DNA of 62,523 bases, counting the filler, from Neophaeotheca triangularis (Eukaryota), in the NCBI GenBank assembly GCA_054600435.1. It is 8 parts of 8 records of this genome, joined end to end, with 100 filler letters (N's around TTAATTAATTAA, not from the genome) between each part and the next. Parts side by side here need not be neighbours in the genome. Positions count along the whole stretch, not along the records: positions 1 to 13,450 come from BAAIJX010000123.1; 7 more parts are not named here. One strand, written 5' to 3'. The translations under genes and the position numbers were made by a program. Below the pieces are notes generated by a model. The model ran no database searches, was not told the DNA's origin, and saw only the letters and a list, made by a program, of their open reading frames with translations. Shown piece after piece: positions 1 through 52,460 of this stretch; the stretch's first letter is position 1, and every line of letters starts with the position of its first letter.

Positions 1-121
1 TAACCCTAACCCTAACCCTAACCCTAACCCTAACCCTAACCCTAACCCTAACCCTAACCCTAACCCTAACCCTAACCCTAACCCTAACCCTAACCCTAAC
101 CCTAACCCTAACCCTAACCCT
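1..121 (-). repeat. Telomeric repeat (TAACCC)n, chromosome end of contig 1
   Basis: 20 perfect TAACCC units at the contig start; canonical filamentous-fungal TTAGGG telomere. Confidence 0.97.
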
Positions 122-122
122 G

Positions 123-1700
123 AAGTACTCTAAAACTATCTCTAAATTTCTAGAGCTTCTAGCTCTAAATATCTACTTACTTAGTAGTAGTCCTTTAAGA
201 GGTAGAGCTTTAACTCTTATTAAATTTAGAAATAGTCCTCTAGGAACTCTTAGGAATCTATTCTATGATTCTAGTACTAGTTTACTAGCCTTAGAGACTA
301 CTAATTTATCTAAAGAAAGAGATACTAGTCTTATTAGTAACTCTAATATTAGATTCTTACCTTTAAGACTTAGTACGGCTATAATCTACTATATTACTAT
401 AGTTATACCTTTTATAGAATATCTTTCTATTAGGTATCTAGCTAAAGATACCCTAGAATATAATCTTTTTAGTACTAGTATTACTAAGATTATTAGTAGT
501 ACTACTCTATCTACTATCTTAAAGGATTATAAAACTAAGTACTTAAGAGTTAGTTTAGGAATTAAGAGCTATAGACATCTTATTACTTATATTATTAAGG
601 AGAGAATAGTAAAGGATAATATAGAGTTACTAAGTCCTAGTAATAAAAGAGATATAATTAGTAAACGCTCTAAAGAAGTATCTATAGAAGACATATTAGG
701 AGGACATACTAATAGTATAGCTAATCGATATTATGCTAGAGAGAGAAACTATTTTAGTAATAGGACTAGTAATATTACTAAAAGGAGTCTAGACTTTACT
801 AAGCTCTACTTTAACTTCTTTAATATAGCTAGAGATAAGGCTATTAAAGATATTATAAGAGATAATCTAGATAATTATAACTCTAATTCTAGTAACTCTA
901 GTCTATATAGTAATAAGTCTAAAAGACTCTATACTAAAGTAAAGACTAGAGCTAGTCTAAAAGAAAGAGAAACTAGAGCTAGTCTAAGAAGAAATTCTTC
1001 TAGAGATCGTAGATCTAGTTCTAACTCTAGCTTAGATTCTAGCTCTATAGATATAGACTCTAAGGAAGAGAACCTAATGGCTACTAATATTATAGATCTA
1101 AGATCTAATTCTAGTACTAATAGTAGCTATAATCCTACTAGATCTAAAACTAAAGAAAGATCTATCTCTAGATCTAAGAAAGAAAATAGACTAGAGACTA
1201 AGAAGCTTAAAGAGCTAGAAAATACTATAATAAGCCCTTCTAAAAATACACTAATAGAAGGCTATCTTAATAATATTAATAAGGATAACCCTAAAGATAC
1301 TAGTAAGGGTAGAGATATAGACTTAGATCTAGATTTAGATCTAGGTTCTTTCTTTACTATAAAGAGTAGTAAAGAAGATAGTATAGAAGTATCTAGCTCT
1401 AATAAAGAGCTAGATAATAGATCTCTAAATCTAGAGAGTAACTTTAATAGATTTAGATTAGGATCTAGTATAGGAGGGCCTACTAGTAGTATAAAAGGGC
1501 CTAGTATAGTAGGATCTAAAAGATCTTGTAATAATAGAAATAGTAGCTCTAGTAGAGATCTAAGTCTAGAAAATAGAATAGAAGATAACTTTACTAATAT
1601 AGAGGATAATCTTTCTAATACTAAGACTAAAGAGAAAAAGAAAGGAGGTAGACCTAAAAAGATTAAAACAGGAAAAAAGGGAAAGCCTAGAAAGGAGTAA
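123..1700 (+). CDS. 5'-truncated 525-codon open frame: tyrosine-recombinase-like domain (resembling the region N-terminal to the helicase in fungal telomere-linked RecQ helicases) plus Ser/Arg/Asn-rich tail and basic GRP end
   Basis: Hand translation is stop-free from 123 to TAA 1698-1700, in frame with ORF 1077..1700: FLELLALNIYLLSSSPLRGRALTLIKFRNS..RNLFYD..IRFLPLRLSTAIIYY..LGIKSYRHLITYI..LGGHTNSIANRYYARE. This fits the YR pattern R(198-200)..RH(573-578)..GH(702-707)..Y(729-734). No ATG before 1077; the frame runs into the telomere. Family call is from motif recall. Confidence 0.7.
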   Translation, partial: KYSKTISKFLELLALNIYLLSSSPLRGRALTLIKFRNSPLGTLRNLFYDSSTSLLALETTNLSKERDTSLISNSNIRFLPLRLSTAIIYYITIVIPFIEYLSIRYLAKDTLEYNLFSTSITKIISSTTLSTILKDYKTKYLRVSLGIKSYRHLITYIIKERIVKDNIELLSPSNKRDIISKRSKEVSIEDILGGHTNSIANRYYARERNYFSNRTSNITKRSLDFTKLYFNFFNIARDKAIKDIIRDNLDNYNSNSSNSSLYSNKSKRLYTKVKTRASLKERETRASLRRNSSRDRRSSSNSSLDSSSIDIDSKEENLMATNIIDLRSNSSTNSSYNPTRSKTKERSISRSKKENRLETKKLKELENTIISPSKNTLIEGYLNNINKDNPKDTSKGRDIDLDLDLDLGSFFTIKSSKEDSIEVSSSNKELDNRSLNLESNFNRFRLGSSIGGPTSSIKGPSIVGSKRSCNNRNSSSSRDLSLENRIEDNFTNIEDNLSNTKTKEKKKGGRPKKIKTGKKGKPRKE

Positions 1701-2039
1701 TAATCTTTTCTAGTCTTAGATTACTTTATACTACTATATTTTAATATTCTTACTCTTTACTAATAGTCTTATTGTTCCTTTTTTAATCTAAGTACTTAAC
1801 TTACTATATCCTAATACTATAAATTCCTAGTAATGATAAATCTTAACTCTAACTCTAACCCTAATTTATAGAATTACTAAGTCTTAGTTTTACTTAAAAG
1901 AGTATAGATTTAGGGAGGGATACTTCTTAAGAGTAAAGCCTATATTAGTAAAAGATATAGAAGTACTAAGCTTTTAAGATTACTTTATAGTATAAGGTAA
2001 TTCTAATATATAGAGAATACTAAAGTAAGTAGGGAAGTT

Positions 2040-3620
2040 AAGATATATATAAAGCTATAGATTTATTAGATTATAACTAGTAGTCTCTAAAGACACTATT
2101 AGGTCTAGTAAAGTCTACTAAGCTAGCTAGAAGTCCCTAGAAACTTCCTAGTACCTTTACTAATACTAAATTTCTAGAGTCTATAGTAAGTTCTTAGTCG
2201 ATTTATATAGAGGGCTATAGATTTACGACACCTTAGCTAGTAGTTTCTATAGTTACTTTTAGGTCTAGTAAAGCCTATAACACTAGCTAGAAGTCCCTAG
2301 AAACTTCCTAGTACCTTTACTAGCCCTAAATGTTTAGAGCCTATAGTAAGTTCTAAGTTAATCTATATAGAGAGCTATAGATTTACGACAACTTAGCTAG
2401 TAGATTCTATAGATACTTTTAGGTCTAGTAAAGCCTATAAAACTAGCTAGAAGTCCCTAGAAACTTCCTAGTATCTTTACTAGCCCTAACTATCTAGAGT
2501 CTATAGTAAGTTCTTAGTTAATTTATATAGAGGGCTATAGATTTACGACACCTTAGCTAGTAGTTTCTATAGATACCCTTAGGTCTATTAAAGTCTATAA
2601 AACTAGCTAGAAGTCCCTAGAAACTTCCTAGTACCTTTACTAATACTAAATTTCTAGAGTCTATAGTAAGTTCTTAGTCGATTTATGTAGAGGGCTATAG
2701 ATTTATAACACCTTAGCTAGTAGTTTCTATAGATACCTTTAGGTCTAGTAAAGCCTATAAAACTAGCTAGAAGTCCCTAGAAACTTCCTACTACCTTTAC
2801 TAATTCTTACTATTCTAGCTCTATAGTAAGTTCCTAGTCAATTTATATAGAGAGCTATAGATTTACGACACCTTAGCTAGTAGTTTCTCTAGATACCTTT
2901 AGGTCTATTAAAGTCTATAAAACTAGGTAGAAGTCTCTAGAAACTTCCTACTACCTTTACTAATTCTTATTCTCTTAGGTTTATAGTAAGCTCTTAGTCG
3001 ATTTATATAGAGAGCTATAGATTTACGACACCTTAGCTAGTAGTTTCTATAGATACTTTTAGGTCTAGTAAAGCCTATAAAACTAGCTAGAAGTCTCTAG
3101 AAACTTCCTACTACCTTTACTAATTCTTATTATTCTAGCTTAACCCTAAGTTCTTAGTCGATTTATATAGAGAGCTATAGATTTACTAGAGCTTAGCTAG
3201 TAGTTTCTATAGATCTTCTTAGGTATAGTAAAGTCTATAAAGCTAGCTAGAGCTCCCTAGAAACTTTATAGTACTTTTACTAATTCTAAATACTAAGTGT
3301 CTATAGTAAGCTCTAAGTCGATTTATATAGAAAGCTATAGATTTACTAGACCTTAACTAGTAGTTTCTATAGGTCTCTATAGATATACTAAAGCCTATAA
3401 AACTATCTAGAAGTCTATAGAAACTTCCTAATATCTTTAATATCTAATTCTTCCTATAACCCTCTTATAAAAAGTATTACTAGGATTTATAGAGAGTTCT
3501 ATAGATTAACGTTAGACCCTAGCTCATTTTCTATAGACTCTATAAACCCTATAGATCCTAGGAAAACTAACTAGAAGTCCTAGAAAACTTCCTAGCTCTT
3601 ATAAAAACTAATTCTCTAAA
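2040..3620. repeat. Subtelomeric tandem array, 160-bp unit, about 10 copies
   Basis: AAGTCCCTAGAAACTTCCTA or a close variant recurs at 2131, 2291, 2451, 2611, 2771, 2931, 3091, 3251, 3411 (exact 160-bp period); terminal copies are more degenerate. Confidence 0.95.
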
Positions 3621-3665
3621 TTTTGCCGGTAAAACAGAGTTATACCATTAGAGTGGTTATACTAG

Positions 3666-4016
3666 ATTTCGACATCCGTTCTACGCCAGAAGACCCTCGC
3701 TATTGCCATCTCCTCGTCATCCGCCTGCAACACTTTCTGGTCTTTTGTCTCCCCATACATTTTCAATCCGGACTACGGTAACCTTCGGGCGAGGATTGGT
3801 TTCGTCTTTGGTGCCTGCATGCTGATCTTTTTCGTGCTCGGCTTCTTGTACGTACCCGAGACGCGCCGCCGGACGTACGAGGAGTTGGATGAGTTGTTCA
3901 TGAGCCATGTCAAAGCGCGCGACTTCAAGAAGACCGTCACAGTTGCCGAAACCCGAGCCAACGAGGCTTACGGTCTTTCTGAAATCAAAAAGGATGACAG
4001 GAATGATTCGGTTTGA
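3666..4016 (+). pseudogene. 3' remnant of an MFS sugar porter (alpha-glucoside permease type), 5' part missing
   Basis: Frame of ORF 3819 extends to 3666: ISTSVLRQKTLAIA..SPYIFNPDYGNLRARIGFVFG..VPETRRRTYEELDELF; the upstream sequence is the AT-rich array. Confidence 0.85.
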
Positions 4017-7734: not shown

Positions 7735-9534
7735 ATGTCTTCCAAGCAGGATGACAACCAGCACAATGCTATTGAAACACCACGCGCAGTGAGTCTGTTC
7801 GACAACTTCTACGCCCAGATTCCCGATGCTGACAGTAGCCTAGGACTCCGTCGCATTCGAAGACGCTCAGGCCGCAGCCGCGACCAACGCAGAACACAAT
7901 GCCGGTCTTTTGGCAAACCTGAAAAAGTTCCCGCACGCGGTCGGGTGGTCCGTCCTGCTCTCGGCTACGATCATCATGGAAGGCTTCGACATAGTCCTGA
8001 TCAACAGTCTCCTAGCTGTGCCCGCATTCCAACGAGCATTTGGGGAACAAATGCCAGACGGCAGCTGGGAAATCACAGCTGCATGGCAGGCCGGTCTTAC
8101 GAACGGAGCTTTGGCTGGACAAGTCATGGGCCTTTTCCTCAACGGAATCATTGCGGACAGATATGGCTTCCGAAAGACGATGATTGGGGCCTTGATGGCC
8201 ACCACGGCTTTCATCTTCATCGTTTTTTTCACCCAAAGCTTGCCTCAGCTCCTGGTCGGTCTCTTTCTCTGCGGAATCCCGTGGGGTGTCTTTCAAACCT
8301 TGACCGGAACCTACGCCGCTGAAGTCTGCCCTACGAATCTGCGATCTTACCTGACCTCTTACGTGAATATGAAGTAAGTCGTCAGGATTCATTAGTACGG
8401 CGACAGGCTCTAACACTCTAGAAGTTGGGTCATAGGGCAATTTCTTGCTTCTGCCGTGCTCCAAGGCGTTGGAGAACGCACCGACCAATGGGCCTACCGC
8501 ATCCCTTATGCTCTCCAATGGATGTTCCCTGTCCCACTCATCATCGGCATCTATCTCGCCCCGGAAAGCCCATGGTGGCTGGTTCGCAAAGGACGACTCG
8601 AAGATGCCAAAAAAGTCCTGGTGAGGCTGGCTGCGAAGAACTCGCCCACCCAGGACTTGGACAACATGGTTCAAATGATGGAGCAAACAAACGAGTACGA
8701 AAAGACTTTGAACGAGGGTACCTCCTACTTCAACTGCTTCAAGGGCGCTGATCTTCGACGCACGGAGATTGTTTGCGCGGTCTGGCTAGTCCAGACGCTG
8801 TGCGGCTCTACTTTCATGGGATACTCAACGTACTTCTATCAGCAAGCTGGATTGGACGTCAGCGCATCCTTCAGCATGTCGCTTGGGCAGTATGCGCTGG
8901 GTCTCATTGGTGTTGTAGTATCTTGGTTTTTGATGCCGCACTTTGGACGACGCACCCTGTATGTGTACGGACAGGCTTCGGTAAGCTCTACCATATGGCC
9001 CCTACGCCAACTCCAGTGCTAACTTTCGACCAGCTATGCTGCTTGTTACTCATTATCGGCTTCGTCGGCATTCCTGCAAGGCAAGACAACGACACCGCCC
9101 GGTGGGTGATCGGCTCAATGCTCTTGATTTTCACCTTTGTCTACGACGCAACTGTGGGACCCGTCTGCTATTCACTCGTCACCGAGTTGCCTTCGACAAG
9201 GCTTCGCCAAAAGACAGTTGTCCTTGCTCGCAACGCCTACAACATCGCTTCGATCGTTACGAACGTCCTGACCACTCAGCAACTCAATCCCGGAGCCTGG
9301 AATTGGGGTCCGTACAGCGCCTTCTTCTGGGCAGGGACTGGCGCCGTAATGTTCGTCTGGTCCTTTTTCCGTCTGCCCGAGCCCAAGAACAGGACTTATG
9401 GCGAGCTTGACGTGCTTTTCAATCTGAAGGTCCCGGCTCGCAGATTTGCTCAGACCAACGTGAACGTCGAGACGCATGGTGTTGTGGAAAACGGGGTTGA
9501 GAAAGGCGAGACTGTGTTTGTGGAGAAGTGCTAA
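7735..9534 (+). CDS. Maltose / alpha-glucoside:H+ symporter (sugar porter family), 4 exons
   Basis: Introns 7789-7843, 8374-8421 (or 8424), 8981-9033 join ORFs 7910, 8456 and 8773; motifs IIMEGFD, DRYGFRK, YAAEVCP, PESPWWL, GPVCYSLVTELPSTRLRQKT, LPEPKNRTYGELD. Confidence 0.95.
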
Positions 9535-12370: not shown

Positions 12371-13190
12371 TCAGACGACATCATACTTCTCCCCCGTCTT
12401 CTCCTCAACCTCCTTGACACTCTTGACATGCGTCTCATCTTCTTCCAGCTTCTTGACATAAGCCCTCAATTTTGCATTTGCCCCCTCCTCGATCTTGCCC
12501 CGCTTCACGGACGCCATGAGCGGGAAACTGAGCATGATATCCGCAGCCGTGAGCTCCTTACCACAGAGATACTCGCCACCTTGCGGCGATGTCTCTAGCT
12601 GACCGTTGAGGAAAGCAAAGTGAGCGGCGAAGTTGTCGGTCAAGTAGAGATTGTAAACTTTGTCTGCGATGCCACGGGTGACGGGTTTGATGAAGAATGG
12701 GACAGGGGAAGCGGCGATTTCTACAAAGACACATTAGCATCGACGTGGGCAAGGGCAAAAGGGCCCGAAAGCTTCGAAGAGAAGGAATAGCCTACGGTCA
12801 ATGAACACGGAGATCAACATCAAACTCATCAAACTCCCCTCGGCATAATGCATGAAAAACCTGTACCGCATCCACTCCTCGCTCTCGCCACCAATCTGGC
12901 CCTCCATACCCTCTCTGTACCTCTTGGGTATCAAGTGCGGCGCAAAGTACTCGCACAAGTACTCAGTCATTGCGCCAGACTCTGCAATAATGCGAGGTTC
13001 AGCGCCAGTGGATGCGGGAGGCTCGACTTTGATGACGGGGGATTTGCCCAAAGGGTGGATCTCTTTGAGTTCCGGGGGTGCGAGTTTGTTGGGTTGACGT
13101 TTGAAGACGACGATCTCATAAGTCATTTTCTGTGACTTGGTGCATTCTTCCAGGAGCCAGACTATGCGTTGGGAGCGGGACTTCTCGAGC
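12371..13190 (-). CDS. Glutathione S-transferase (Gtt1/Gst3-like); first exon not resolved
   Basis: LEKSRSQRIVWLLEE, IHPLGKSPVI, IAESGA, HYAEGSLM, LTAADIMLSFPL; intron 12721-12795; acceptor at 13191. Confidence 0.9.
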
Positions 13191-13450
13191 CTGAAGGCTG
13201 CAGGTTAGTTTGAGGTCTTTTGGAATGATAGTTTGCGCCCATTCAGTGGGATTTTGAGTCTGGTCTCATCGTCTCTACAGATAGGCCGGAGCGGGAAGAT
13301 TGACTTGGGAGGCAATTGGGGCACACAAAGTGGACGTGGGGGGGGGGGGGGGGGGCCCTCACCATTAAACCTTAACCATGGTCTTTTCATATGAATCCGA
13401 CATGGGGAGCGGAGTTGACCTATTAACGTCGGTCGGGGGTTTGTAAATAA

Positions 13451-13550
13451 NNNNNNNNNNNNNNNNNNNNNNNNNNNNNNNNNNNNNNNNNNNNTTAATT
13501 AATTAANNNNNNNNNNNNNNNNNNNNNNNNNNNNNNNNNNNNNNNNNNNN
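13451..13550. other. Artificial contig spacer (also at 24858-24957, 34882-34981, 44601-44700, 49553-49652, 54070-54169, 58326-58425)
   Basis: N-run + TTAATTAATTAA (stops in all six frames) + N-run, 100 nt each time. Confidence 0.98.
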
Positions 13551-16500
13551 TACAATCATACTAACACTAGAGATTAGCCCCTTAAGACTATCGATACCTC
13601 TAGAGATTCTAGAATTATAAGAAGACATGATAGTAATAGATTCTAAAGACAACTCCGAATATGATTATACTGACGATAACGAACTAGACGACAACGATGT
13701 AGTAGAGTTCATTATATATAGACTAGGTCTAATCAAGAAAATGGTTATTCATATCATATAGTTATATGAAGAAGTGTTCCTAGTAATCTAAGGCAAACGA
13801 TACTTAGAACCTAATCAATTCGAAGCTATACTTATATGACTATAAGTAATGTTCTAGGACTACTAAAAGGTCGCTGTCGAGTATAACACTACTACCTTTG
13901 TCTAGGATAGGCTACTAATAGGAAGTACTTTCTATAGAGAAAATAGCTATATTACGCTAGATAGGATATAGATCCTATACACGATAAGACAACAAGTTAA
14001 GATAGTCAAGAATTATTATAGAGAATTCTAGCTTATCTAGGAGTAGTAGAGAGAAGAAGAAATCACGCTATAAGAAATGAAGAAATAAGTATAGGATTCC
14101 TTAGACTAATAGATAATAGTACTATACGAAAAATTTCTACTACTAGTCGACTAAAAGATGATTCTTAGACATGTTAAAGTAACTACATGAGGACCTATCA
14201 CTACACACATAATCTAAGGAAAAGTTATGATTAGACCTTAGGACGGACCCCTTTATTAGGAAGTCTCTCTCGAGATAGCAGATTTATCTACTTACTTCTC
14301 AAAAAACGAATAGGACCTATCGCTAAGAGCGAGCGTTAGGAACTAAACAACATAAATGCTTAACATGAAATAGTATTAGGAACGGTCTTCTAAACAATAT
14401 ATACTATCGATAGATACGAAACCTTTACTATAATAGATTCTAGAGCTAGTAGAAATTTTATCTCGGAAACGTTCGTATATTAGTATAGGCTAGCTACCTA
14501 GAAGAAAACAGATAGTAGGTACAAACTAATAGCTATAGATAGCTTATTACTACCTAACGTGGATAGCGAAATAGTACTACTACTACTTGTCTTCTAAAAG
14601 TATTATGAGCAAATTGTCCTAGACATTATACCTATAGCTAGATATGATGTCGTTCTAGGTACTCCTTAGTTAGAATAACATAATCCTATAGTAGATTGGA
14701 GAAAACGAGTACTTACATTTAATAGGTATAGTTATGTTACTACAACTTACCCTATGTACTAGTAGCGATCAATAGTAGATAAGAGAAGGTAGATTAATGA
14801 AACATATCGCTAATCAACTATAATACTAATACGAATTAGATCAGACTCTATAGGTACCGAACTAGCCTAAATAGACTAATAAGTAAGAGTTGAGGAAGGA
14901 AGTCATATACCTTCGGATATCCCTAGAGAATTTAGGAAATAGAAGCGCCTTTTCTAGGAAGAGGAAGGAGTAGCTACTCTACCTAGACACTAACTATAGG
15001 ACTACTAAATCGACATTTAGCCTAGTATAAAGATACTATAGGGGCCACTTTACGCGCTATCTGAAAAAGAGCTCGAAGAGTAATGATAATAGCTAGATGA
15101 AAAAATGAAGAAAGGATAGATTCGACCCTCTATTTCATTAGCTACTTCACTACTGTTTTTCGTTCTAAAGAAAGGAGGAAAACTATAAATAGTTATCGAT
15201 TTTAGGCGACTTAATGTGATTACTACTAAAAACCGTTATCTACTACCTAACATCGACGAGATAAGAGACCGACTTACTAGTTCATACTAGTTTACTAAAA
15301 TCGATCTCCGAGATGCATTCTATTTAGTTAGAATAGTAAGGGGGGAAGAGTAGAAAACAGCTTTTCGAACGCGCTACAGACTTTACGAATTCTAGGTTAT
15401 ACCTATAGGACTTATAAATGCCCTAGTAACCTATTAACAACTCATTAATAACATCCTATAAGACCTACTCGACATTACTATTATCGCCTATATTAACGAC
15501 ATATTAGTCTTCATGAAAGGATCATGAGAACAGTATACTAAGGACATATATACTGTGTTCGAACGACTCGATAAGGTAGACTTTAGGATAGTACTAGAGA
15601 AGTACGAGTTCTATAAAAAGGAAGTTGACTTTCTAGGCTTTATAATTAGCACTACTAGGATCTAAATAGACCTAAAGAAAACTCAATCAATCGAGGAATA
15701 GCTAATACCTAAGTTAGTTAAGGATATCTAAGTATTTATTAGACTAGCTAACTATAATCGGAAATTCATGTAAGACTATTTAAGGCTCGCTATGCCTCTA
15801 ACTAATCTCACGAAGAAAGATATACTATTTATATAGAGAAAGATTTAACAACAATCCTTTAATAAGCTTAAGGAGTTATGTACGACTATCCCTATACTTA
15901 GGATGTTTAACCCTAAGAGACCTATCTAAATCGAAACTAATGCCTCTAATAGAGTAATAGGAGCTTACCTTATATAGGAGGTTGAAAATAAACGATACCC
16001 TATTACCTACTTCTTAAGGAAGATGTCACTAGTAGAATAGAATTACGAGATCTATAATAAAGAACTACTCGTAATCATTATAGTATTACGATACTAGAGA
16101 GTATACTATAAAGGAGTAACTAGACTAACTATTTACTTAGATCATAAGAACCTATAATACTTCATAACTACTAAGGAACTATTATGCTAATAATGTAGAT
16201 AGTTAGAGCTACTCGGACAATATAAGTTCGATATAGTCTATACTCCTAGAAAAGACAATAGGCACGCTAATACGCTAAGTAGAAGAAGCGACTATATAGA
16301 AGGGTACCTTCTATAGCAACACTATATACTAAAGGTTAATAAGGATAGAAGCCTAAGCGCTAACCCTTAGGAATTTAACTTAGTATTATGAGTACTATAG
16401 GATAACACTAAAGAATTCCCTATTAAATATAGGAAGTTTAGGGTTCTAAACAAAAAGGAATGCTAGTATATCTAGGACTACTACAATAGACCTACTAACG

Positions 16501-18500
16501 GACATCTAGGAATCGCTAGAATAGTAGAACACATTAGATATAACTTCATGTTCCCTAGAATGAGATAGAAAGTCTTAGAGTATATTAAGAAGTATACAAG
16601 CTACTAATAGAATAAGGCTTTAAGACATACTAAGTATAGAAACCTTCAATTCTAAAAGCTACTAGATCTACTATAGAATGAGGTTATAATGGATTTCATC
16701 ATTAAGCTACTAAGATCTAAAGACCTATTAATAAATAAGGACTACGATTCAATTCTAGTTATAGTTAATAGACTCATAAAGTATTCACATTTTATTCCCT
16801 ATAATGAGACAATTACTATAGAGGAACTCGGATACCTTATCCTCGACAGATTAGTATAATACTATAGTATTCTAACAGTTCTAATTACAGATAGAGATAA
16901 GCTCTTCATATCTAATTACTAGAAAACCTTAATTTTAGTAATCAGAGTGAAACACAAACTATCGATAGCATTTCACCTAGAAACTAATAGATAGACAGAA
17001 TGCTTAAACTAATCCCTCGAAACATACTTAAGACATTATATTAACTATACTTAGGACAATTAGGTAGCGCTCTTACCTATAGTACAGCTCGTACTTAATA
17101 ACAATACCTTAGAAACGATAGGCATAACTCTATTCTATATGAATTTCAGAAAGGATCTAAATACCTTTATAGAGCTAAAGCTAGGACTACTCATGGAAAG
17201 AGCCCTATAAACGTCTTCGTAGCTATAGGAAGCACATAAATAGGCGAAAGATAAGATCATATAGTTATAGTAGCGACTCGAGTCATAAAGACATAAGGAC
17301 TCTAAAATGGCACCTTAGCTTAAGAAGGGGGATAAGGTATACTTACTTATAAAAAACCTGAAGATAAGGAGACAAACATGAAAACTAGACCATATTAAAG
17401 TCGGACCGTTTCTAGTTAGAGAATAGAGAGGAAAAGTCAACTACCTCCTCTAACTCCTAAAAGACGCTAGAGTCTACCTAGTCTTCTATATATCCTTATT
17501 AGAACTAGTAGACGCTGAAACACTAATCTAAGACACCTTCTACCATAATCTACTAGAAGAAGAAGCCGAGTATGAGGTCGAAAAGATTCTAGATAAGAAC
17601 GGTTAGAACTACCTCATGAAATAGAAAGGATATCCTATAAGCGAGAACACCTAGGAACCTAAGGACAACTTACTTAATTACTAGAAGGCCCTATAATAGT
17701 ATTACTAAACAAACTACCCTAAGCGCTAGGGCTTATTAGGAGACAGTCGTCCTAAGGAAGAGGATCGAACGATAGAAGATCTAGTTTAGCGGATAGCTCC
17801 TCGAGCTCTTACTCCTAAATGCCGCGCTCTTCTATAGCGATAGTATCTCTAGCCTACCTTTCGTTCTAATCAAGTTGTTTTAGAAGACGAGACTCCTATA
17901 CTAGTACCTCGCTATACTAACTATATACGGCCTCTAGAGATAGCCGAGCCTCCTCTAGCTCTTCCCTGTTTTTTACTATCTTCTCTTTTAGAGAGAAACG
18001 TTCATGCATTAAACTCTAGAACTCTGACATAGTAATACGAATATCATAACTCTAGTTATTTGTCGTATTATAGACACTATAGTAGCAGCTCTAGACATGT
18101 ACCTTATATACTTACCCTGTCTTTTTATAAGGACTACACTTTATCGGTATATCGTCTCTAAAGTTCTTAATGAATGTAGCGATGTTATGTCGATAAGTAG
18201 TCGAAGAAGATTTGCGTTGTTTTTGAACCTAGGAATTCATGTTAGCTAAAGGAAGAGGAAGGTAGCGTTATGATAAAGAGTAGATAAGCTTTAGGACGAA
18301 GCTAGGCTAGAAGGGGGATAGTGTTATAGACATACTCACGACTACTAACCCTACGACAGAACATACCTTACATATACTACATATATGATAGAGCACATAG
18401 AGTATATAGAGAATAGAGTATATAGAGTACCCATAATAGAGTATATAGAACATGTAGAGCGCTCTATAATAGAGCACTATAGAGTAGACAGATCACGACA
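13551..18500 (+). mobile_element. RIP-inactivated chromodomain Ty3/Gypsy LTR retrotransposon, copy A (5' part off contig)
   Basis: Degenerate RT (GPLYALSEKEL ~15041; AYINDILV for YxDD ~15486), RNase H (IETNASN ~15930), integrase (GHLGI 16501; MDFIIKL 16689), chromodomain (YEVEKIL 17571; ENT*EP); PPT AAGGGGGATAG then TG at 18322; putative LTR 18322-18500; many TAA/TAG stops. Confidence 0.93.
17670..18240 (-). pseudogene. RIP-damaged antisense Cys-rich / coiled-coil ORF in the 3' region of Gypsy copy A
   Basis: ATG at 18240: MNS*VQKQRKSSSTTYRHNIATFIKNF..KCSPYKKTG*VYKVHV..; Tyr at spacings expected for Cys (TGT>TAT), then a Glu/Leu-rich helix; 3' end approximate. Confidence 0.55.
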
Positions 18501-18502
18501 AT

Positions 18503-19918
18503 TAGATACATGAATCTCCTTTATATTTAGGTAGCGACATTTCCTAGATAGAGATTTGTGTTCAACTTATGTTATAATCTTACTAAAAGGTCTATAGTAA
18601 TACTTCATGTATCTTTAAAATCCTTATAAAGGAAATACCCTTACTAGCCTTCTACGATATCTCTCCTCTTCTACTACGAGCTCTACCCATAAGACTACCT
18701 TATAAGATCATAACACTAATTTAAAGGTCTATTAGCTCTATAAGATCTACTACTAAACCCGCTCGCTATATAGCTATATCTTTAAAACCCACGAGGCCTC
18801 TACATTAGCCTATAACTACATAGAAAAGCACTACAAAATTAATAAGGACGGCCTAACTATAATGTCACGACAGAACTACCCTAATTCCGTTAAAATTTGG
18901 TGAAGATTTAGGGGCCAAAATCTAATAGGGGGGAAGGGGGGGGGGGGTAGTTCTATTAAGATTATAGGCATGTTAAAGAGTGACTAGAGGGTCTATAGCG
19001 GTCTAATATAGTAAGGCTATCTCTTCGATAGTCCTATTAAACGAGCTAGGTCATTATCGTATTATTTAAGTCTAAAGGCTACTCTAGCCTATAATCTTAG
19101 TTACTAACTATAGGTTTTACGCTATCTTCTCTATCTTTTAACGCTTACTAGTGTTTCTCTACTTTAGGTAGTCTTAGTGCTCGTATCTAGTATGTCTATA
19201 GGCCGCTATCTCGGTAGAGAGTTAAAGTAATCCGATAAACGTCTCTCGATAACATCTTCTACATGTTCGGTCGCTATTATATAGTATACTAGGATGAGGA
19301 TGAGAAATAAACTATAGACTATAGCTATAATAGCGCTAATAGCGATCTATAGCTACTACTTTATTAGGCTAATAAGACCTCCTAGAACTATACTAAGTGT
19401 AGAAAACCTAATGAAAAGAACTATATAAGGTATAAGTCCTATATCCCCTATAATAGTTAAGGTAGGTAAGAAGCGAATACTAAGGCGACTTACTATCTTC
19501 GGTTTTCCTCCCTTCCTATCTAGCGTTATATAATATCACCTAAATATCCTTATAAATAATTCGACTATCCTCGTCTCTAAAAATCTCGGCATATCTTTTA
19601 ACTAGCTATATACCTATCTCGTGCCCATTTCTAATTATCTACTATACTACTATCTGTCTTATATAGTTAATTAGTAAAGATCGCTTTATGACTAGTAACT
19701 ACATATTATAATCCTATAAGGTAGTCTTATAGGTAGAGCTTATAGTAGAAGAGGAGAGATATCGTAGAAGGCTAGTAAGGGTATTTCCTTTATCATAAGG
19801 ATTTTAAAGATATGTGAAGTGTCGCTATAGACCTTTTAGTAAGATTATAACATGAGTTGAACACAAATCTCTATCTAGGAAATGTCGCTACCTAAATATA
19901 AAGGAGATTCGTGTGTCT
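18503..19918. mobile_element. RIPped element bounded by ~210-bp inverted repeats (long-TIR DNA transposon relic?)
   Basis: 18503-18715 is the reverse complement of ~19705-19918 apart from transitions and a small indel; no recognisable transposase motif inside. Confidence 0.6.
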
Positions 19919-20039
19919 CGACTATCTTACTATCGAGATAGTCGATTTCTACTTACTATCTCGCCCGTTAAGTAGTCGAGCGAGGTCGACTGTCTCGACG
20001 CGAGCTAAGCGAGACATAGTAGGAGTCTTCGGCCGAAGT

Positions 20040-23000
20040 GTGGTTAGGATATAGCTTGACTACGTTTCGTCGAGACACTACGTTCCTTAGCTCTTAATCC
20101 TTCTATACTAACTAATGAAATCCTATGTTCGGGAAATCCCATAACACTATCCCTCTCCTAGGGCGCTTGTCCTAAGCGGTCCGTAACTTAGTAAATAGTT
20201 CTTTTCCCTACTTCTCTCTTCTCTTATCATCTTACGATGTCCCGCTCGAAACAAAACCGCCTTCGTCTTACTTAAGAGATTTAACATAATAGTTACCTAG
20301 TTCCGTTCCCTTATGATCGCTGTTTTTCTTCTAGCCACGACTATATCGCTATAGAGAGTTTTTCCTAACTGAAATGTTTAGAGTATGTTCGTTAGGGTAA
20401 GGTATACGTCAATCTGTTATAGGCTTCCCTAGATCATACTTAGGAGGAATACTAGAAAAAGGTTGATGAGGATAAGGAGGAGTTAGCTTATATTATGGCT
20501 CGGTTAATGTATAATAAAGCGATTCTTCGTTAGGCTAAGGCGCGTGCTCGCTATAAGGCTAAGTGTCTTATATTAGAGATAGACGTATTAGGAGAGCTAG
20601 AGTTAGAGGATTGTCCTACTATAGATATGACTATAGGTCTCTCTCCTACTATCTAGTTGTCGCTAGACTTCATTAATAACGCGACCGACCCTTTCCTACC
20701 TAGCGATACTATTATAATAGCTTCTAGTAGTTAAGTAAGTTATCCTTAGGTTCCTAAGTGTTTTTGCTTATAGGATACCCTTTCCACTTTATGAGGTAAT
20801 TCTAACTGTCTTTGTCTAGAATCTTTTCGACCTTATATTTAGCTTCTTCCTCTAGTAGATCGTGGTAGAAGGTGTCCTAGATAGGTATTTTAGTGTCTAC
20901 TAGTTCAAGTAAGGATATATAGAATACTAGATAGACTCTAGTATCTCTTAGGAGTTAGAGGAGGTAGTTGACTTTTCCTCTTTATTCTTTAACTAGAAAC
21001 GGTCCGACCTTAACATAGTCTAGTTTTCGTGTTCATCTCCTTATTTTCAGGTTTTTCATAAGTAAGTACAACTTATCCCCCTTCTTAAGCTAAGGTACTG
21101 TTTTAGAGTCTTTATGTCTTTACGATTCGAGTCGCTACTATAACTATATGATCTTGTCTTTCGCCTATCTATATACTTCCTATAGCTACGAAGACGTTTA
21201 TAGGGCTCTCTCTACGAGTAGTCCTAGCTTTAGCTCTATAAAGGTGTTTAGATCTTTTCTGAAGTTCGTATAGAACGGAGTTATGCCTATCATTTCTAAG
21301 GCATTGTTATTAAGTACGAGCTATACTATAGGTAAGAGTACTACCTAATTATCCTAAGCGTAATTAATATAATGTTATAAGTACGTTTTAAGGGATTAGT
21401 TCGAGCGTTCTATCTATCTATTAGTTTCTAGGTGAAATGCTGTTAATAGCTTGTGTTTCACTCTAATTGCTAAAATTAAGGTCTTCTAGTAGTTAGATAT
21501 GAAGAGCTTGTCTCTATCTATAATTAGAACTATTAGAATACTATAGTATTATACTAATCTGTCGAGTATAAGGTACCTAAGCTCTTCTATAGTGATTATC
21601 TCACTATAGGGAACGAAATGTGAATACTTCATGAGTCTATTAACTATAACTAAGATCAAATCATAGTCCTTACCTATCGATAGGTCTCTAGATCTTAGTA
21701 ACTTAACGATAAAATCTATCGTAACCTCGTTCTATAGTAGATCTAGTAGCTCCTAGAATTATTGGTTTCTATATTTAACATGTCTCGAAGCTTTGTTTTA
21801 TTAGTAGCTTATACATTTCTTGATGTACTCTAAGACCTTCTATCTCATTCTAGGAAATATGAAGTTATATCTAATATATTCTACTATTCTAGCGATTCCT
21901 AGATGTCCGTTAGTAGGTCTATCATAGTAGTCCTAGATGTACTAGCGTTCCTTTTCATTTAGAACCCTAAACTTCCTATGTTTAATAGGGAATTCCTTAG
22001 TGTTATCCTATAGTACTCGTAGTACTAAGTTAAATTCCTAAGGATTAGCGCTTAGGCTTCCGTCCTTATTAACTTTTAGTATATAGTATTACTATAGAAG
22101 GTGTCCTTCTATATAGTCGCTTCTTCTACTTAGCGTGTTAGTATGCCTATTGTCTTTTCTAGGAGTATAGACTATATCGAACTTATATTATCTAAGTAGC
22201 TCTAACTATCTACATTATTAGCGTAATAGTTCCTTAGTAGTTATGAAATATTGTAGGTTCTTATAATCTGAGTAAATAGTTAGTCTAGTTACTCCTTCAT
22301 AGTATACTCTCTAGTATTATAATACTATAACGATTATGAGTAGTTCTTTGTTATAGATCTCGTAGTTCTATTCTACTAGTAATATCTTCCTTAAGAAGTA
22401 AGCGATAGGGTGTCATTTACTTTCAACCTCCTATATAAAGTAAGCTCCTATTACTCTATTAGATATATTAGTTTCGATTTAGATAGGTCTCTTAGGGTTA
22501 AACATCCTAAGTATAAGGGTAGTTATACATAACTCCTTAAGCTTATTAAAGGATTGTTATTAAATCTTTCCCTATACAAATAGTGTGTCCTTCTTTATGA
22601 GGTTAGTTAGAGGTATAGCGAGCCTTAAATAATCCTACATAAATTTCTGATTATAGTTAGCTAATCTAAGGAATGCTTAAATGTCCTTAACTAACTTAGG
22701 TGTTAGCTATTCCTTAATTGATTGAGTTTTCTTTAGGTCTATTCGGATCCTAGTAGTGCTAATTATAAAGCCTAGAAAGTCGACTTCCTTTTTATAGAAC
22801 TCGTATTTCTCTAGTACTATTCTGAAGTCTACCTTGTCGAGTTGTTCGAATACTATATGTATATCCTTAGTATGTTATTCTCATGATCCTTTCGTGAAGA
22901 CTAATATATCGTTAATGTAAGCGATAATAGTAATATCGAGTAGGTCTTATAGGATGTCGTTAACGAGTTACTAATAAGTTACTAGGGCGTTTATAAGTCC

Positions 23001-24857
23001 TATAGGTATGACCTAGAATTCATAAAGTCTATAGCGCGTTCGAAAAGCTGTTTTCTACTCTTCCCCCCTTACTATTCTAACTAAATAGAATGTATCTTAG
23101 AGATCGATTTTAGTGAACTAGTGTGAACTAGTGAGTCGATCTCTTATCTTATTAATGTTAGGTAGTAGATAACGGTTTTTTGTGGTGATCGCATTAAGTC
23201 GTCTAAAATCGATAACTATTTATAGTTTTCCTCCTTTCTTTAGAACGAAAAACGGTAGTGAAGTAGCTAATAAAGTAGAGGGTCGAATCTATCCTTTCTT
23301 CATTTTTTCATCTAGCTATTATCATTACTCTTCGAGCTCTTTTTTAGATAGCGCGTAAAGTAGCCCCTATAGTATTTTTGTACTAGGCTAAATGTCGATT
23401 TAGTAGTCCTATAGTTAATATCTAGGTAGAGTAGCTATTCCTTCCTCTTCCTAGAAAAGGCGCTTCTATTTCCTAAATTCTCTAGGGATATCTAAAGGTA
23501 TATGACTTCCTTCCTTAACTCTTACCTATTAGTCCGTTTAGGCTAGTTCGGTACCTATAGAGTCTAATCCAATTCATATTGATATTATAGTCAATTAGCG
23601 ATATGTTTCGTTAATCTACCTTCTCTTATCTACTATCGATCGCTACTAGTATATAGGGTAGGTTGTAGTGACGTAACTATATCTGTCGAATATAAGTACT
23701 CATTTTCTCTAATCCACTATAGGATTATGTCGTTCTAACTAAGGAGTGCCTAGAACGATGTTATGTCTAGCTATAGGCATAACATCTAGGACAATTCGCT
23801 TGTAATACTTTTAGAAGACAAGTAGTAGTAGTACTATTTCGCTATCTATATTAGGTAGTAATGAGCTGTCTATAGCTATTAGTTCGTACCTACTATCTGT
23901 TTTCTTCTAGGTAGCTAGCCTATACTAATGTATAAATGTTTCCGAGATAAAGTTTCTACTAGCTCTAGAGTCTATTATAGTAAAGGTTTCATATCTATTG
24001 ATAGTATATGTTGTTTAGAAGACCGTTCCTAATACTATTTCATGTTAAGTATTTATGTTATTTAGTTCCTAACGCTCGCTCTTAGCGACAGGTCCTATTC
24101 GTTTTTTGAGAAGTAGGTAGATAAATCCGCTGTTTCGAGAGAGACTTCCTAGTAAAGGGGTCCGTCCTAAGGTCTAATTGTGACTTTTCCTTAGATTACA
24201 TGTGTAGTGATAGGTCCTTATGTAGTTGCTTTAATGTGTCCGAGAATCATCTTTTAGTTAACTAGTAGTAGAAATTTTTTACATAGTACTATTATCTATT
24301 AGTCTAAGGAATCCTATGCTTATTTCTTTATTTCTTAAAGCGTGATTTCTTCTTCTCTCTATTACTCCTATATAAGCTAGAATTCTCTATAATGATTCTT
24401 GACTATCTTGACTCGTTATCTTATTATGTATAGGATTCGTATCCTATCTAGTATAATATAGCCATTTTCTCTATAGAAAGTGCTTCCTATTAGTAGCCTA
24501 TCCTAGACAAAGGTAGTAGTGTTATACTCGACAGCGACCTTTTAGTAGTCCTAGAACATTACTTATAGTTATATAAGTATAGCTTCGAATTGATTAGGTT
24601 CTAAGTATCGTTTGCCTTAGATTACTAGGAACACTTCTTCATATAACTATATGATATGAATAACCATTTTCTTGATTAGACCTAGTCTATACATAATGAA
24701 CTCTACTACATCGTTGTCGTCTAGTTTGTTATCGTTAGTATAATCATATTCGGAGTTGTCTTTAGAATCTATTACTATCATGTCTTCTTATAATTCTAGA
24801 ATCTCTAGAGGTATCGATAGTCTTAAGGGGCTAATCTCTAGTGTTAGTATGATTGTA
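20040..24857 (-). mobile_element. RIP-inactivated chromodomain Ty3/Gypsy retrotransposon, copy B (inverted relative to A)
   Basis: 20720-24857 is the reverse complement of 13551-17690 with mainly transition differences; PPT AGAGGGATAG then TG at 20146 on the minus strand; LTR distal end uncertain. Confidence 0.92.
20237..20734 (+). pseudogene. RIP-damaged antisense Zn-cluster-like / coiled-coil ORF of Gypsy copy B
   Basis: MSRSKQNRLRLT*EI*HNSYLVPFPYDRCFSSSHDYIAIESFS*LKCLEYVR*GKVYVNL..; de-RIP gives C-x2-C..C..C-x2-C..C followed by a coiled coil. Confidence 0.65.
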
Positions 24858-24957
24858 NNNNNNNNNNNNNNNNNNNNNNNNNNNNNNNNNNNNNNNNNNN
24901 NTTAATTAATTAANNNNNNNNNNNNNNNNNNNNNNNNNNNNNNNNNNNNNNNNNNNN

Positions 24958-25074
24958 AACCCTAACCCTAACCCTAACCCTAACCCTAACCCTAACCCTA
25001 ACCCTAACCCTAACCCTAACCCTAACCCTAACCCTAACCCTAACCCTAACCCTAACCCTAACCCTAACCCTAAC
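24958..25074 (-). repeat. Telomeric repeat (CCCTAA)n, chromosome end of contig 3
   Basis: About 19 perfect units at the contig start. Confidence 0.97.
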
Positions 25075-48900: not shown

Positions 48901-49064
48901 CCAGAATCTTCGTTGCCCTCACTTTGGGCAGGCGTAGGGCGCGACACCGCTCTCACGTCAACTTCAGCATTCTCAAGGTCTTCACGCTTGCGCTTGCTGC
49001 GGCTGCGGGCCTGGCGGATGCCACTGTCCATGTTGGTGGTGTAGTAGGAGCCTAGATCTTTCAA
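45959..49064 (-). CDS. Dynamin-superfamily (SLIP-GC/NUGGC-like) P-loop GTPase, multi-exon
   Basis: G1 GAAGV|GKS split by intron 48483-48544; in-frame intron 48379-48429; G2 GQSCTHV, G3 ADLPG, G4 TRSD; helical C terminus with further GT-AG introns near 46675, 46505 and 46360; start uncertain (ATG 49031 or an upstream exon). Confidence 0.85.
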
Positions 49065-50064
49065 AGTGTAAGAAGTGAGCGGGCTAGGTTCATCAAGCGA
49101 TGCTGATGTAGAACGTTCATTGCCAATTGGCTACGAAGGAGGCTGTAACGCAATGTGAGATACGTACCGGTAGCTGCGCAAAGTATAGTACTGCAGAGTT
49201 GGCCAAGGAAGGAAGCGTAACGCGCACTGGATGTTGCTGTAGAAGATGGGTAGGCAGCGGATGTCGAAAGAAAGGCGGTAGAGTTGAGGAGGCCGCCAGG
49301 TAGAAAGCAGACTAGGCTTGTTCTGGCCAAGAAAGAGATGTTTATACTTCACTTGGAGTGAAGTGGAAACAGTTGGGTCTGTACTGAAGCCATTGAAACA
49401 TTACCTTGGGTGAGCCGATGTCAGCTTGCCCGGGCAGAGATGGGAATACATAATAGCAAGTCCTACGGGGATACATATGAGTGTTTCGGCGCATGATATT
49501 TTGGAAGCAGTACAGACCGCAACGCCAGCCATTGATGCCCCCCTGCCCCCCCNNNNNNNNNNNNNNNNNNNNNNNNNNNNNNNNNNNNNNNNNNNNTTAA
49601 TTAATTAANNNNNNNNNNNNNNNNNNNNNNNNNNNNNNNNNNNNNNNNNNNNTAAAACCCTTATATTAGTACTATTAAGGATTTTTAGACTAATCTAAAT
49701 AGAACAATTTACTTAATACTACTAATACTAGCTATATATAAACTTTTATTACTATCGAGTAAGTACTTCCTTAAATATAGCCTTAAAGTATAGTAAAATC
49801 CTAGAAGTTTCTTAATTTTAGGTACTAGGTACTTTAAGTTACCCTAGATTTTCTTAAGATAGGGCCTTCCCTTTCTAGACTACCCCGCATTCTTAGAGAT
49901 AAGATAGAGATAAATGAAGGGAGATATAAGGGTATTCCTTTCCTCCTTAAATTTTAAGGAAAGTAAGATACTTCTTTCTATAATCAAAATTCCCTACTAC
50001 TATATCTACCTACACTTTTACCTTTCAAGTCTTCCTAAGCCTTTACCCTAACCCTACTTCTATA

Positions 50065-50660
50065 ATGTTATTACCCTTTATCTCTATTCCTATCTCTAAG
50101 TCTAGAGGTATTAGGAAAGGGGGGAAGAAAGGTACTAATAAGGGGATTCATATTAAGTAAGTTTTTTATCTTTTTTTTTTTTTTTTTTTGCTAATACCTA
50201 ATACTTATTAGGAACCCTACCTATTATGCCGAACGGATCGTAAATACTAAGCTCCTTAAGACCTTAGAGAAGGTTAAAGAGGAGAAGAGAGCAATTTCCC
50301 TAGCTCTAGAAGAAGAGAAAGAAAAGAATAGAAAAAAGGATGAAATTATAAAAAGTATATTTCTTTCCCTTTTTTTATATCTTCTTTAACTAACTATTAA
50401 TCTAGAGAAAGAAGAGAGTCTAGTCTTCTTAAAAGGAAGAGTAGAGACCCTAGAGCTAGAGGCTCTTACTAAGGAGATTAATAGGAATAATTTAGAGAGT
50501 GAATCTCTAAATCCTATAAATCCCTTAGAGTCTCTAGAGGATTACCCTCTAGATTTTGATTTTGATTTAAGTAGTAAGTAACTCCCTTTACCTTTAATAG
50601 AAACTTATCTAACTTAAGATTATAGATTTTCCTTATAATGATTTTATATTAGATAACTAG
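50065..50660 (+). CDS. Intact 4-exon, 145-aa basic / coiled-coil / acidic-tail protein inside AT-rich subtelomeric DNA
   Basis: Exons 50065-50156, 50212-50354, 50406-50573, 50626-50660 (438 nt, no internal stop); 51-55-nt introns GTAAGT or GTATAT..CTAAY..TAG; MLLPFISIPISKSRGIRKGGKKG..LEKVKEEKRAISLALEEEKEKNRKKDEIIKKKEESL..DFDFDLSNFPYNDFILDN. Confidence 0.7.
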
Positions 50661-52278: not shown

Positions 52279-52460
52279 TATATATAGATATAGGGTAATT
52301 ATACTAGATATACTTAAGGTAAAAAGGGTTTATAGTATAGTATATATAGATATAGGGTAATTATACTAGATATACTTAAGGTAAAAAGGGTTTATAGTAT
52401 AGTATATATAGATATAGGGTAATTATACTAGATATACTCAAGGTAAGAAGGGTTTATAGT
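52279..52460. repeat. 62-bp tandem repeat, 3 copies
   Basis: TATATAGATATAGGGTAATTATACTAGATATACT at 52281, 52343, 52405. Confidence 0.9.

Follow-up and report, generated by a model that had tools for sequence, protein, structure and literature searches.

Genes of the fungal TLH family (TLH1 of Magnaporthe oryzae, tlh1/2 of Schizosaccharomyces pombe, Vv3 of Botrytis cinerea, and members in Ustilago maydis and Fusarium oxysporum) are linked to telomeres. Two preprints describe their products as containing two C2H2 motifs and RecQ motifs, with a TLH domain of ~250 amino acids immediately preceding the helicase, and give the function of the TLH proteins as undetermined (10.1101/2024.02.27.582403; 10.1101/2022.03.07.483234). 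Of the TLH domain, the former says no more than that it is a conserved motif (10.1101/2024.02.27.582403). According to a preprint on fungal subtelomeres, sexually reproducing fungi are unlikely to retain intact subtelomere domains (10.1101/2023.02.05.527183), and according to another publication, telomeres are not immune to repeat-induced point mutation (RIP). RIP marks on an intact gene under purifying selection have been described for histone H3 of Pseudocercospora fijiensis (Dhillon et al., 2019; PMC6710886).

The gene described here lies at the beginning of a 62,523-nt stretch of DNA from Neophaeotheca triangularis (GenBank assembly GCA_054600435.1). The whole stretch is referred to as the window, and coordinates count along it. 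At 123..1700 (+), the window contains an open reading frame (ORF) of 525 codons followed by TAA; residue 1 of the encoded protein (P0001) corresponds to base 123. Taken together, the results make it likely that this ORF is a RIP-hardened, helicase-less gene of the TLH family with a tyrosine-recombinase-type domain, which is cut here by a telomere. It resembles the described TLH genes in adjoining a telomere repeat, in the homology of its residues 1–246 to the domain upstream of the helicase in proteins of the order C2H2 (OrsD), domain, DEAD, Helicase_C, and in the presence of tandem repeats beside the gene. The differences are that the ORF and its closest full-length relatives lack the helicase and carry a low-complexity tail with two AT-hooks instead, that the coding sequence is virtually free of CpA and TpG, and that this copy is cut by the telomere.

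Assignment of the ORF to the TLH family

A word-index search of protein collections with the ORF product yielded 13 relatives with E-values down to 1.7e-77, and a full HMMER search with residues 1–246 gave 237 clusters at E ≤1e-3. The matched segment is located at approximately residues 600–900 of long relatives. In two sets of long relatives, DEAD and/or Helicase_C were found downstream of the domain in 13 out of 20 and 29 out of 38 proteins, and an OrsD-type C2H2 region at the N-terminus in 13 out of 20 and 18 out of 38. Residues 1–246 align to the segment directly upstream of DEAD in P0025 (E 5.6e-28), P0034 (9.8e-24), and P0037 (1e-20; P denotes protein relatives and L metagenome loci). 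The TLH domain is said to have been defined by Rehmeyer and coworkers in 2009.

The closest long relatives, P0015 (1298 amino acids), P0016, P0017, P0018, and P0026, contain zinc fingers and the TLH domain; a RecQ-type helicase (DEAD plus Helicase_C) was detected neither in these five proteins nor, with Pfam at E ≤10, in the window ORF. A Ser/Asn/Lys-rich tail with terminal GRP AT-hook motifs, as in the window ORF, is present in P0015, P0016, P0018, and P0026. GRP AT-hook endings also occur in P0002–P0004, P0008, P0010, P0012, and P0013, and P0017 ends in a single IGRPR. C2H2 motifs were found in the close relatives P0014, P0015, P0026, and L002. The cluster annotations of the relatives do not include the label "TLH"; only one protein from a metagenome-assembled genome of a lichen fungus and one "superfamily II helicase" are named. 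The TLH label was assigned because the domain architecture and the published TLH descriptions agree. Judged by these alignments, the window ORF is the C-terminal ~45% of a TLH-family member rather than a stand-alone recombinase gene, and it is placed in the helicase-less, AT-hook-tailed branch of the family. In the gene model of one relative, P0009 (315 amino acids), a segment of a retroviral-type aspartyl protease (RVP_2, E 3e-4) is fused to the N-terminus; this fusion is probably an artefact of a gene model located beside a retroelement.

Predicted fold and active site of the TLH domain

The TLH domain of the window ORF covers 123..860 (+). An AlphaFold2 model of residues 1–246, built on a 61-sequence alignment, had a predicted local distance difference test score (pLDDT) of 85.4 and a predicted template modeling score (pTM) of 0.82. 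The fold assignment is based on VIA-align, a structure search independent of Foldseek, with which the model was compared to 48161 chains. The highest Z-scores were obtained for archaeal XerA (11.3; root mean square deviation 3.3 over 148), XerD (10.0 and 9.5), and XerA and XerH (9.2), followed by IntI (8.6), Cre (8.0), a bacterial topoisomerase IB (7.6), and Ndc10 (5.4–6.1). Z-scores of 5 or higher were reached by 28 of the 48161 chains, and the first unrelated protein scored 3.5. The best 30 matches comprised recombinases, integrases, type IB topoisomerases, Ndc10, a protelomerase, and three DNA-binding regulators, which we take to be recombinase-like as well. In a Foldseek search against the PDB, no match was found at E ≤0.001 (best match XerA, E 8e-3); tyrosine recombinases occupied every position among the matches listed to rank 19. 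The TLH domain is thus predicted to adopt a tyrosine-recombinase/topoisomerase-IB fold.

The residues expected for an active site of this type are conserved in the family. Among 110 domain sequences, the same residue as in the window copy was found for Arg26 (198–200) in 107, for Lys64 (312–314) in 110, for Arg151 (573–575) in 110, and for Tyr204 (732–734) in all 101 non-gap sequences. The column of His195 (705–707) contains His in 85 and Arg in 13 sequences, and that of His152 (576–578) His in 73 and Gln in 24. The initial annotation had pointed to the YRH, GGH, and YYAR motifs and to the active-site order of tyrosine recombinases; the corresponding motif residues (R in SPLRG, K in SKE, RH in YRH, GH, and Y in YYAR) coincide with the conserved columns of the family. 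The equivalence to the recombinase active site was judged by order and secondary-structure position. The order Arg...Lys (in a hairpin)...Arg-His...His...Tyr is that of tyrosine recombinases such as XerA, XerD, XerH, Cre, lambda Int, and IntI, which share the predicted fold together with the type IB topoisomerases. His195 and Tyr204 are 9 residues apart, presumably the same spacing as in XerD, Cre, and lambda Int. In contrast to the known recombinases, the domain shows no detectable sequence similarity to them, contains ~20 extra residues between the second Arg and the last His, and, in the family, forms part of a zinc-finger protein of >1100 residues. The segment preceding the TLH domain resembles the N-terminal domains of recombinases only weakly: the 430 upstream residues of L002 were modeled with a pLDDT of 86.6 and gave weak matches (Z ≤5.0), and 10 of the 50 listed matches were the N-terminal ~100 residues of recombinases or Ndc10, among unrelated helical proteins.

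Sequence-based searches did not identify the domain. Pfam scans of 64 relatives revealed no family covering it, NCBIfam gave one chance match to the window ORF (E 0.1), and a search of PDB sequences with the ORF found only a low-complexity match to the tail of FEN1 (E 1.3). In the ESM Atlas features, 27 of the 30 matches were clusters without a common Pfam family, and the three shown belonged to Ascomycota and Basidiomycota and were hypothetical proteins. Clusters of the Integrase and NDC10_II families turned up only at a score of 0.85 and provide no more than a lead. In the literature covered, to which Rehmeyer et al. (2009) and the preprint supplements did not belong, no publication was found that links TLH proteins to recombinases, and the word "recombinase" occurs 0 times in the Fusarium TLH preprint (10.1101/2024.02.27.582403).

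Other eukaryotic, repeat-associated elements with a tyrosine-recombinase domain, which is predicted here, are Cryptons, the DUF3435 "captains" of Starships, and DIRS/Ngaro elements. The unit in the window shares with Cryptons the absence of terminal inverted repeats. The family differs from these elements: it has no Pfam match to DUF3435 or Phage_integrase and no reverse transcriptase, it is telomere-linked, and its mobility is hypothetical.

An open frame in RIP-type DNA

Read in the frame of base 123, the sequence contains no stop from base 3 up to the terminal TAA (1698–1700). Its sole ATG, at 1077, accounts for the 207-codon piece to which, as the initial annotation had pointed out, the ORF track was restricted. 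The further counts reported there could be reproduced: the DNA of 123–1700 is rich in TpA (303; observed/expected ratio 1.52) and nearly devoid of CpA (5; 0.06) and TpG (4; 0.05), and the protein contains no Gln, no Trp, one Met, one Cys, and two His. CpG is also rare (4; 0.13), and the GC content is 0.28. Both His are encoded by CAT, at 576–578 in SYRH and at 705–707 in GGH...RYYAR. The RIP-vulnerable codons left in the ORF are one CGA, two CAT, one ATG, and one TGT.

The length of the frame exceeds by far what this composition yields by chance. In 2000 dinucleotide shuffles of 123–1700, the longest open frame did not exceed 96 codons, and in 2000 second-order Markov sequences, it did not exceed 99 (mean ~50 in both sets); the composition-matched shuffling that had been proposed as a check, 4000 sequences in total, thus agrees with the proposal. 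In other AT-rich blocks of the window (12800–25000 and 49000–54500), the longest open frame was at most 126 codons. The two other plus-strand frames of 123–1700 contain 63 and 141 stop triplets, the ORF frame none before the terminal TAA. When saturating RIP at CpA/TpG was simulated on eight ordinary long ORFs of the window, 335 stops arose in 5177 codons, corresponding to 34 per 525 codons, and the longest open runs shrank to 38–83 codons. Codons that a single C-to-T or G-to-A substitution would convert into a stop (CAA, CAG, CGA, TGG) amount to 5.2–9.3% in these eight controls, and to 1 of 525 in the window ORF.

The loss of CpA and TpG is not confined to positions within codons. Across the codon boundaries of the ORF, three such dinucleotides were observed versus a mean of 70 and a minimum of 52 in 2000 codon-order shuffles. 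The RIP indices TpA/ApT and (CpA+TpG)/(ApC+GpT) are 1.93 and 0.07 for the ORF and 2.38 and 0.07 for its 3′ flank. The depletion at the codon boundaries and in the 3′ flank indicates a mutational signature at the DNA level and not amino acid choice alone. GC-rich blocks of the window have values of 0.56–0.60 and 1.23–1.31, whereas its other AT-rich blocks are RIP-type. The usual thresholds of the two indices are ~0.89 and ~1.03; the DNA of the ORF lies above the first and below the second, as RIP-mutated DNA does. Because only one of the 525 codons is stop-prone, the frame stays open under RIP without selection on this copy. A second full copy of the element was not found inside the window.

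Probable RIP-hardening and selection in the relatives

The amino acid composition of the window ORF recurs in the family. Gln, Trp, Met, Cys, and His together make up at most 3% of the residues in 30 of the 110 domain-bearing relatives, compared with 10–20% in ordinary members. In P0026 (1225 amino acids), the two C2H2 patterns account for eight of the nine Cys/His residues, H835 being the remaining one; the lone Gln of this protein directly follows the second Arg, and its lone Met is M1. P0017 (1283 amino acids) has a GC-rich composition (Gly+Ala+Arg+Pro 35%) and contains the five residues at 1.0%. Its ten Cys/His are found in two N-terminal zinc-finger clusters, one of which fits C2H2, and as H1026 in YRH and H1069. 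Since P0017 is GC-rich and yet depleted, AT-richness alone does not explain the loss of these residues; its sequence suggests an avoidance of CpA/TpG without AT-richness.

The locus L002 is intact, with an ATG, a 54-nt intron (GTAAGT...TAG), at least 1224 open codons, and observed/expected ratios of 0.04 for CpA and 0.02 for TpG. Six AT-rich copies (L005–L010; CpA/TpG observed/expected 0.1–0.2) showed ratios of non-synonymous to synonymous substitution rates (dN/dS) of 0.15–0.41 in 15 of 15 pairs, as calculated by the Nei–Gojobori method (NG86), which ignores extreme base composition and transition bias. Alongside these copies under purifying selection, three dead ones from a single assembly (L001, L003, L004) carry 7, 9, and 14 TAA/TAG stops in a single frame. 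At the YRH position, all three have Tyr instead of His, and L003 and L004 also at the GH position; Tyr is the expected RIP product of the His codon CAT. The initial annotation had set against its own proposal the prospect of further copies full of stops with dN/dS near 1. The stops occur in L001, L003, and L004, but dN/dS is 0.15–0.41 among L005–L010 and L002 is intact.

The dead copies differ from each other at 409–508 positions per pair, and 74–78% of the differences are transitions, mainly in CpG, CpT, and ApG contexts. The transitions now lie outside CpA/TpG because these dinucleotides have been exhausted. Hardening lowers RIP damage but does not abolish it. In the aligned 3.4 kb of the dead copies, CpG/TpA double differences were also noticed, together with near-equal numbers of CG>TG (60–82) and CG>CA (61–81) differences per pair; it looks as if CpG had turned into TpA in two RIP-type steps. 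In a FastTree phylogeny of the domain, the hardened and normal states switch at least seven times, and the window protein is sister (support 97) to P0009, which has a normal composition. The intron of L002 (502–555) splits the first zinc-finger region, has a tactaat branch-like site, and its splice signals are without CpA/TpG.

As far as can be read from these proteins, RIP-hardening is family-wide: in relatives of 1000–1500 residues, the few vulnerable codons that persist encode almost exclusively zinc ligands, active-site residues, and the start Met. RIP together with selection would account for this composition. The histone H3 case of P. fijiensis is similar in that RIP acted on a copied sequence and selection passed only harmless changes (PMC6710886). 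In comparison, the process seems here to have reached exhaustion across 500 to >1200 codons and to have eliminated whole amino acid classes (Gln, Trp, most Met, Cys, and His) from a large multi-domain family.

Truncation and copy number of the window copy

The telomere repeat, (TAACCC) ×20.2 at 1..121, marks the chromosome end and is joined straight to the interior of the gene; the ORF begins 2 nt past it. A 2305-nt contig from a sequencing run labeled as another organism (X2) is 99.2% identical to 124–1073 and extends 1355 nt further upstream. The X2 copy diverges from the window at base 123/124, exactly where the window turns to telomere repeats. Its 30 upstream letters, read by eye in the ORF frame, contain no stop and resemble the relatives at that position. 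The alignments pair residue 2 of the window protein with residue 652 of P0015 and residue 4 with residue 510 of P0005. Judged by them, telomere addition within the gene has cost the window copy ~650 N-terminal residues, including the zinc fingers, and any start codon.

In a sequencing run that matches the window without difference (X1), the depth over 123–1474 was 146 versus 128 for single-copy contigs. For bases 1445–2043, covering the final ~250 nt of the ORF as well as the 3′ spacer, the X1 contigs came in two variants with about twice the depth; another copy with a more severe truncation is probably present elsewhere in the X1 genome. The window copy is probably a truncated, near single-copy relic and not a demonstrably active repeated element.

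At the inner side, the element borders on a sugar-transporter gene and takes the place of the missing 5′ part of that gene, which points to a break within the transporter gene as the site where the chromosome end was formed anew. The element thus sits on a broken chromosome end, and telomere addition healed a subsequent break within it. A related unit of ~5.3 kb occurs more than once in a metagenome assembly, with unrelated flanks (L001 versus L004: 87% identity over 5353 nt); in this unit, the gene lies between a 5′ leader and two ~350-bp tandem units. The edges of the element in L001, L003, and L004 showed neither clear terminal repeats nor target duplications. Inverted repeats in 121–3700 of the window were limited to weak matches of 70–90% over 20–34 nt, as predicted for low-complexity DNA, and terminal inverted repeats were not found there.

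Evaluation of the interpretation and its alternatives

Several observations weigh against the interpretation as a RIP-hardened TLH gene with a recombinase-type domain. The fold is derived from a predicted structure, Pfam yielded 0 families for the window ORF at E ≤10 and neither Phage_integrase nor DUF3435, and a profile of 25 domain sequences matched only Csy1 (E 1) among PDB sequences. The His of the HxxR motif is missing: the window copy has Lys148, and the column is variable across the family (K, N, S, Q, A, and others). A Glu three residues past Arg26, which is kept in 99 of the 110 sequences, is Ala in the window copy. For most of the hardened relatives, the loss of CpA/TpG is deduced from amino acid make-up; the dN/dS values share the limits of NG86; and the FastTree phylogeny is rough and places composition-biased rows unreliably, although compositional attraction would reduce the number of switches. 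The window copy itself lacks its N-terminal part, and because 123–1474 has single-copy depth in X1, RIP would not act on it now. Its nine differences from the X2 copy over 124–1387, which affect eight codons (5 non-synonymous, 3 synonymous), are too few to show constraint.

Parts of the initial annotation have to be narrowed accordingly. The proposed tyrosine-recombinase-like gene corresponds to a predicted fold in the N-terminal 246 residues of what is a TLH domain with a tail and not a separate gene, and its motif lacks the HxxR His; the structural comparison suggested there gave Z-scores up to 11.3 (XerA) with VIA-align, but nothing at E ≤0.001 with Foldseek and no DUF3435 match in Pfam. 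Selection on the frame and the active-site His, which had been postulated, is borne out by the relatives with their long frames and residual codons at functional residues, whereas the openness of this copy needs no selection. The idea of a RIP-adapted, nearly immune repeated element holds for the composition, which is RIP-type. The immunity is partial, as the residual CGA, CAT, ATG, and TGT codons and the C-to-T changes at CpG and CpT in dead relatives indicate, and the copy in the window is probably a near single-copy relic.

Four alternative explanations were considered. The recombinase-fold domain might be catalytically dead and serve as a DNA-binding module only, the family working via its zinc fingers, helicase, or AT-hooks. 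The model for such a state is Ndc10, a subunit of the CBF3 kinetochore complex, in which a eukaryotic recombinase-like fold is used on AT-rich chromosomal DNA and which is not known to retain the catalytic recombinase residues. The match of Ndc10 chains at Z 5.4–6.1, the missing HxxR His, Arg in place of His195 in 13 of 110 sequences, and the absence of a Pfam integrase signal are in line with this possibility. We nevertheless regard it as unlikely, since bacterial and archaeal Xer proteins outscore Ndc10 (Z 9.2–11.3) and the TLH domain, unlike Ndc10, keeps the catalytic Arg, Lys, Arg, and Tyr (107/110, 110/110, 110/110, and 101/101), even where almost all other vulnerable codons have been purged. 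It is less probable still that the window copy itself is a working gene with a frame under selection, expressed by transcription from the telomere side or as a 207-residue AT-hook protein from the ATG at 1077. All 525 codons are open and only nine differences from the X2 copy are listed, but there is no start codon ahead of 1077, ~650 residues, among them the zinc fingers and the segment that precedes the catalytic domain, are gone, and the frame with its single stop-prone codon survives RIP without selection; the 5 non-synonymous versus 3 synonymous codons relative to X2 do not speak for it either.

The composition could also be ascribed to a general AT-biased codon use or a foreign origin (an AT-rich donor or an organelle plasmid) instead of RIP, with Gln and Trp being rare due to low complexity. 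The GC content of 0.28 is indeed below the 0.36–0.45 obtained when CpA-only RIP was simulated on ordinary genes, and CpG is low as well. This explanation is very improbable, given that the loss is specific for CpA/TpG (0.06 and 0.05) while TpA is at 1.52, and that it reaches codon boundaries (3 versus ~70) and the non-coding 3′ flank (index 0.07). The other AT blocks of the window are RIP-type by index and the GC blocks are not, the AT-rich Gln codon CAA is absent, the GC-rich P0017 shows the same scarcity of Gln, Trp, Met, Cys, and His, and dead relatives have in-frame TAA stops. A long frame arising by chance in low-complexity, strand-symmetric DNA is practically negligible as an explanation. 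A 152-codon frame on the opposite strand shows that the sequence is somewhat frame-permissive, but at most 99 open codons occurred in the 4000 randomized sequences, 204 stop triplets in the other two plus frames contrast with 0 in the ORF frame, and homologues were found at E 1e-77. The chance origin of the frame is refuted by the shuffle maximum of 99 codons and the homologues down to E 1.7e-77.

Proposed mechanism and implications

For the favored interpretation, a RIP-hardened TLH gene cut by a telomere, the following model is proposed. Full-length relatives consist of two N-terminal C2H2 fingers, a helical middle part, the TLH domain of ~250 residues, and then either a RecQ-type helicase or an AT-hook tail. 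The TLH domain with its Arg-Lys-Arg-His-Tyr set most likely cuts and rejoins DNA via a 3′-phosphotyrosyl link, as the structural model suggests. Such a reaction would be a plausible route for moving or recombining the element among chromosome ends, and the AT-hooks may hold the protein on AT-rich DNA. As repeated elements, the copies would be exposed to RIP at every sexual cycle. Those gaining stops would die, while the survivors would have lost CpA/TpG sites silently or conservatively and replaced Gln and Trp codons. The end state would be a coding sequence that RIP can hardly damage, in which vulnerable codons remain almost only at zinc ligands, the active-site His/Gln, and the start Met. 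In the window, telomere addition healed a chromosome break within the gene and left an open, start-less, and roughly single-copy fragment.

A recombinase/topoisomerase-type active site offers a concrete hypothesis for the spread of TLH genes among chromosome ends or for telomere repair. More speculatively, and with more doubt than confidence, TLH genes might be the engines of unrecognized tyrosine-recombinase-driven elements that colonize chromosome ends and that, in RIP-proficient fungi, have become a self-recoded, CpA/TpG-free, RIP-resistant selfish family. If this were true, the family would be constitutively resistant to the mutagenic arm of RIP, with vulnerable codons only where chemistry demands them. 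CpA/TpG-free frames of 500 to >1200 codons under purifying selection suggest that recoding enables a repeated gene family to survive RIP, and hence that TLH genes and RIP are compatible in the same fungus. The loss of whole amino acid classes from a large protein amounts to a natural experiment in reduced-alphabet protein evolution. For genome annotation, caution is advisable, as "dead-looking" AT-rich blocks may hide intact genes overlooked by gene finders and Pfam.

Further features of the locus

Downstream of the TLH domain, the ORF encodes a low-complexity tail rich in Ser, Asn, Lys, and Arg (861..1634, +), in which the alignment with relatives revealed the conserved short islands SSLYSNKSK, LDSSS.D, and SPSKNT.I..Y. 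The C-terminus (1635..1697, +) contains two AT-hook-like motifs, KKGGRPKKIK and GKKGKPRKE, where relatives carry GRPKK/GRPRK twice. These motifs had no Pfam match, and we take them to fit the AT-hook consensus. On the opposite strand, 1262–1720 (−) contains a 152-codon, Leu/Ser-rich open frame overlapping the gene tail, which is most likely a by-product mirroring the strand-symmetric codon set (AGA/TCT, AGT/ACT). A scan of 1–200 for bacterial promoters and terminators was empty, the bacterial models being not relevant to fungal DNA.

The ORF is followed by the AT-rich 3′ spacer of the element (1701..2043, +; 343 nt), whose RIP indices are like those of the ORF, and by a tandem array of a 160-bp unit (×8.7, 87% matches; 2044..3439), which separates the gene from host DNA. 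In L001, the two ~350-bp tandem units (7905–8561) are found in the same position as this array. The tandem repeats may possibly be recombination or regulatory sites. The inner edge of the AT-rich element is located at 3440..3640, with an abrupt shift to GC-rich DNA at ~3625–3640. The 3′ remnant of the sugar-transporter gene (3678..4016, +) comprises the C-terminal ~110 codons (Pfam Sugar_tr, E 2.8e-10, profile positions 383–452 of 452). Farther inside the window, two inverted copies of an AT-rich repeat (14164–16924 and 21483–24198) have ~67% DNA identity to 9266–12014 of L004, a region that adjoins the related element there; this similarity suggests that one RIPped retroelement family is associated with the gene across different organisms.

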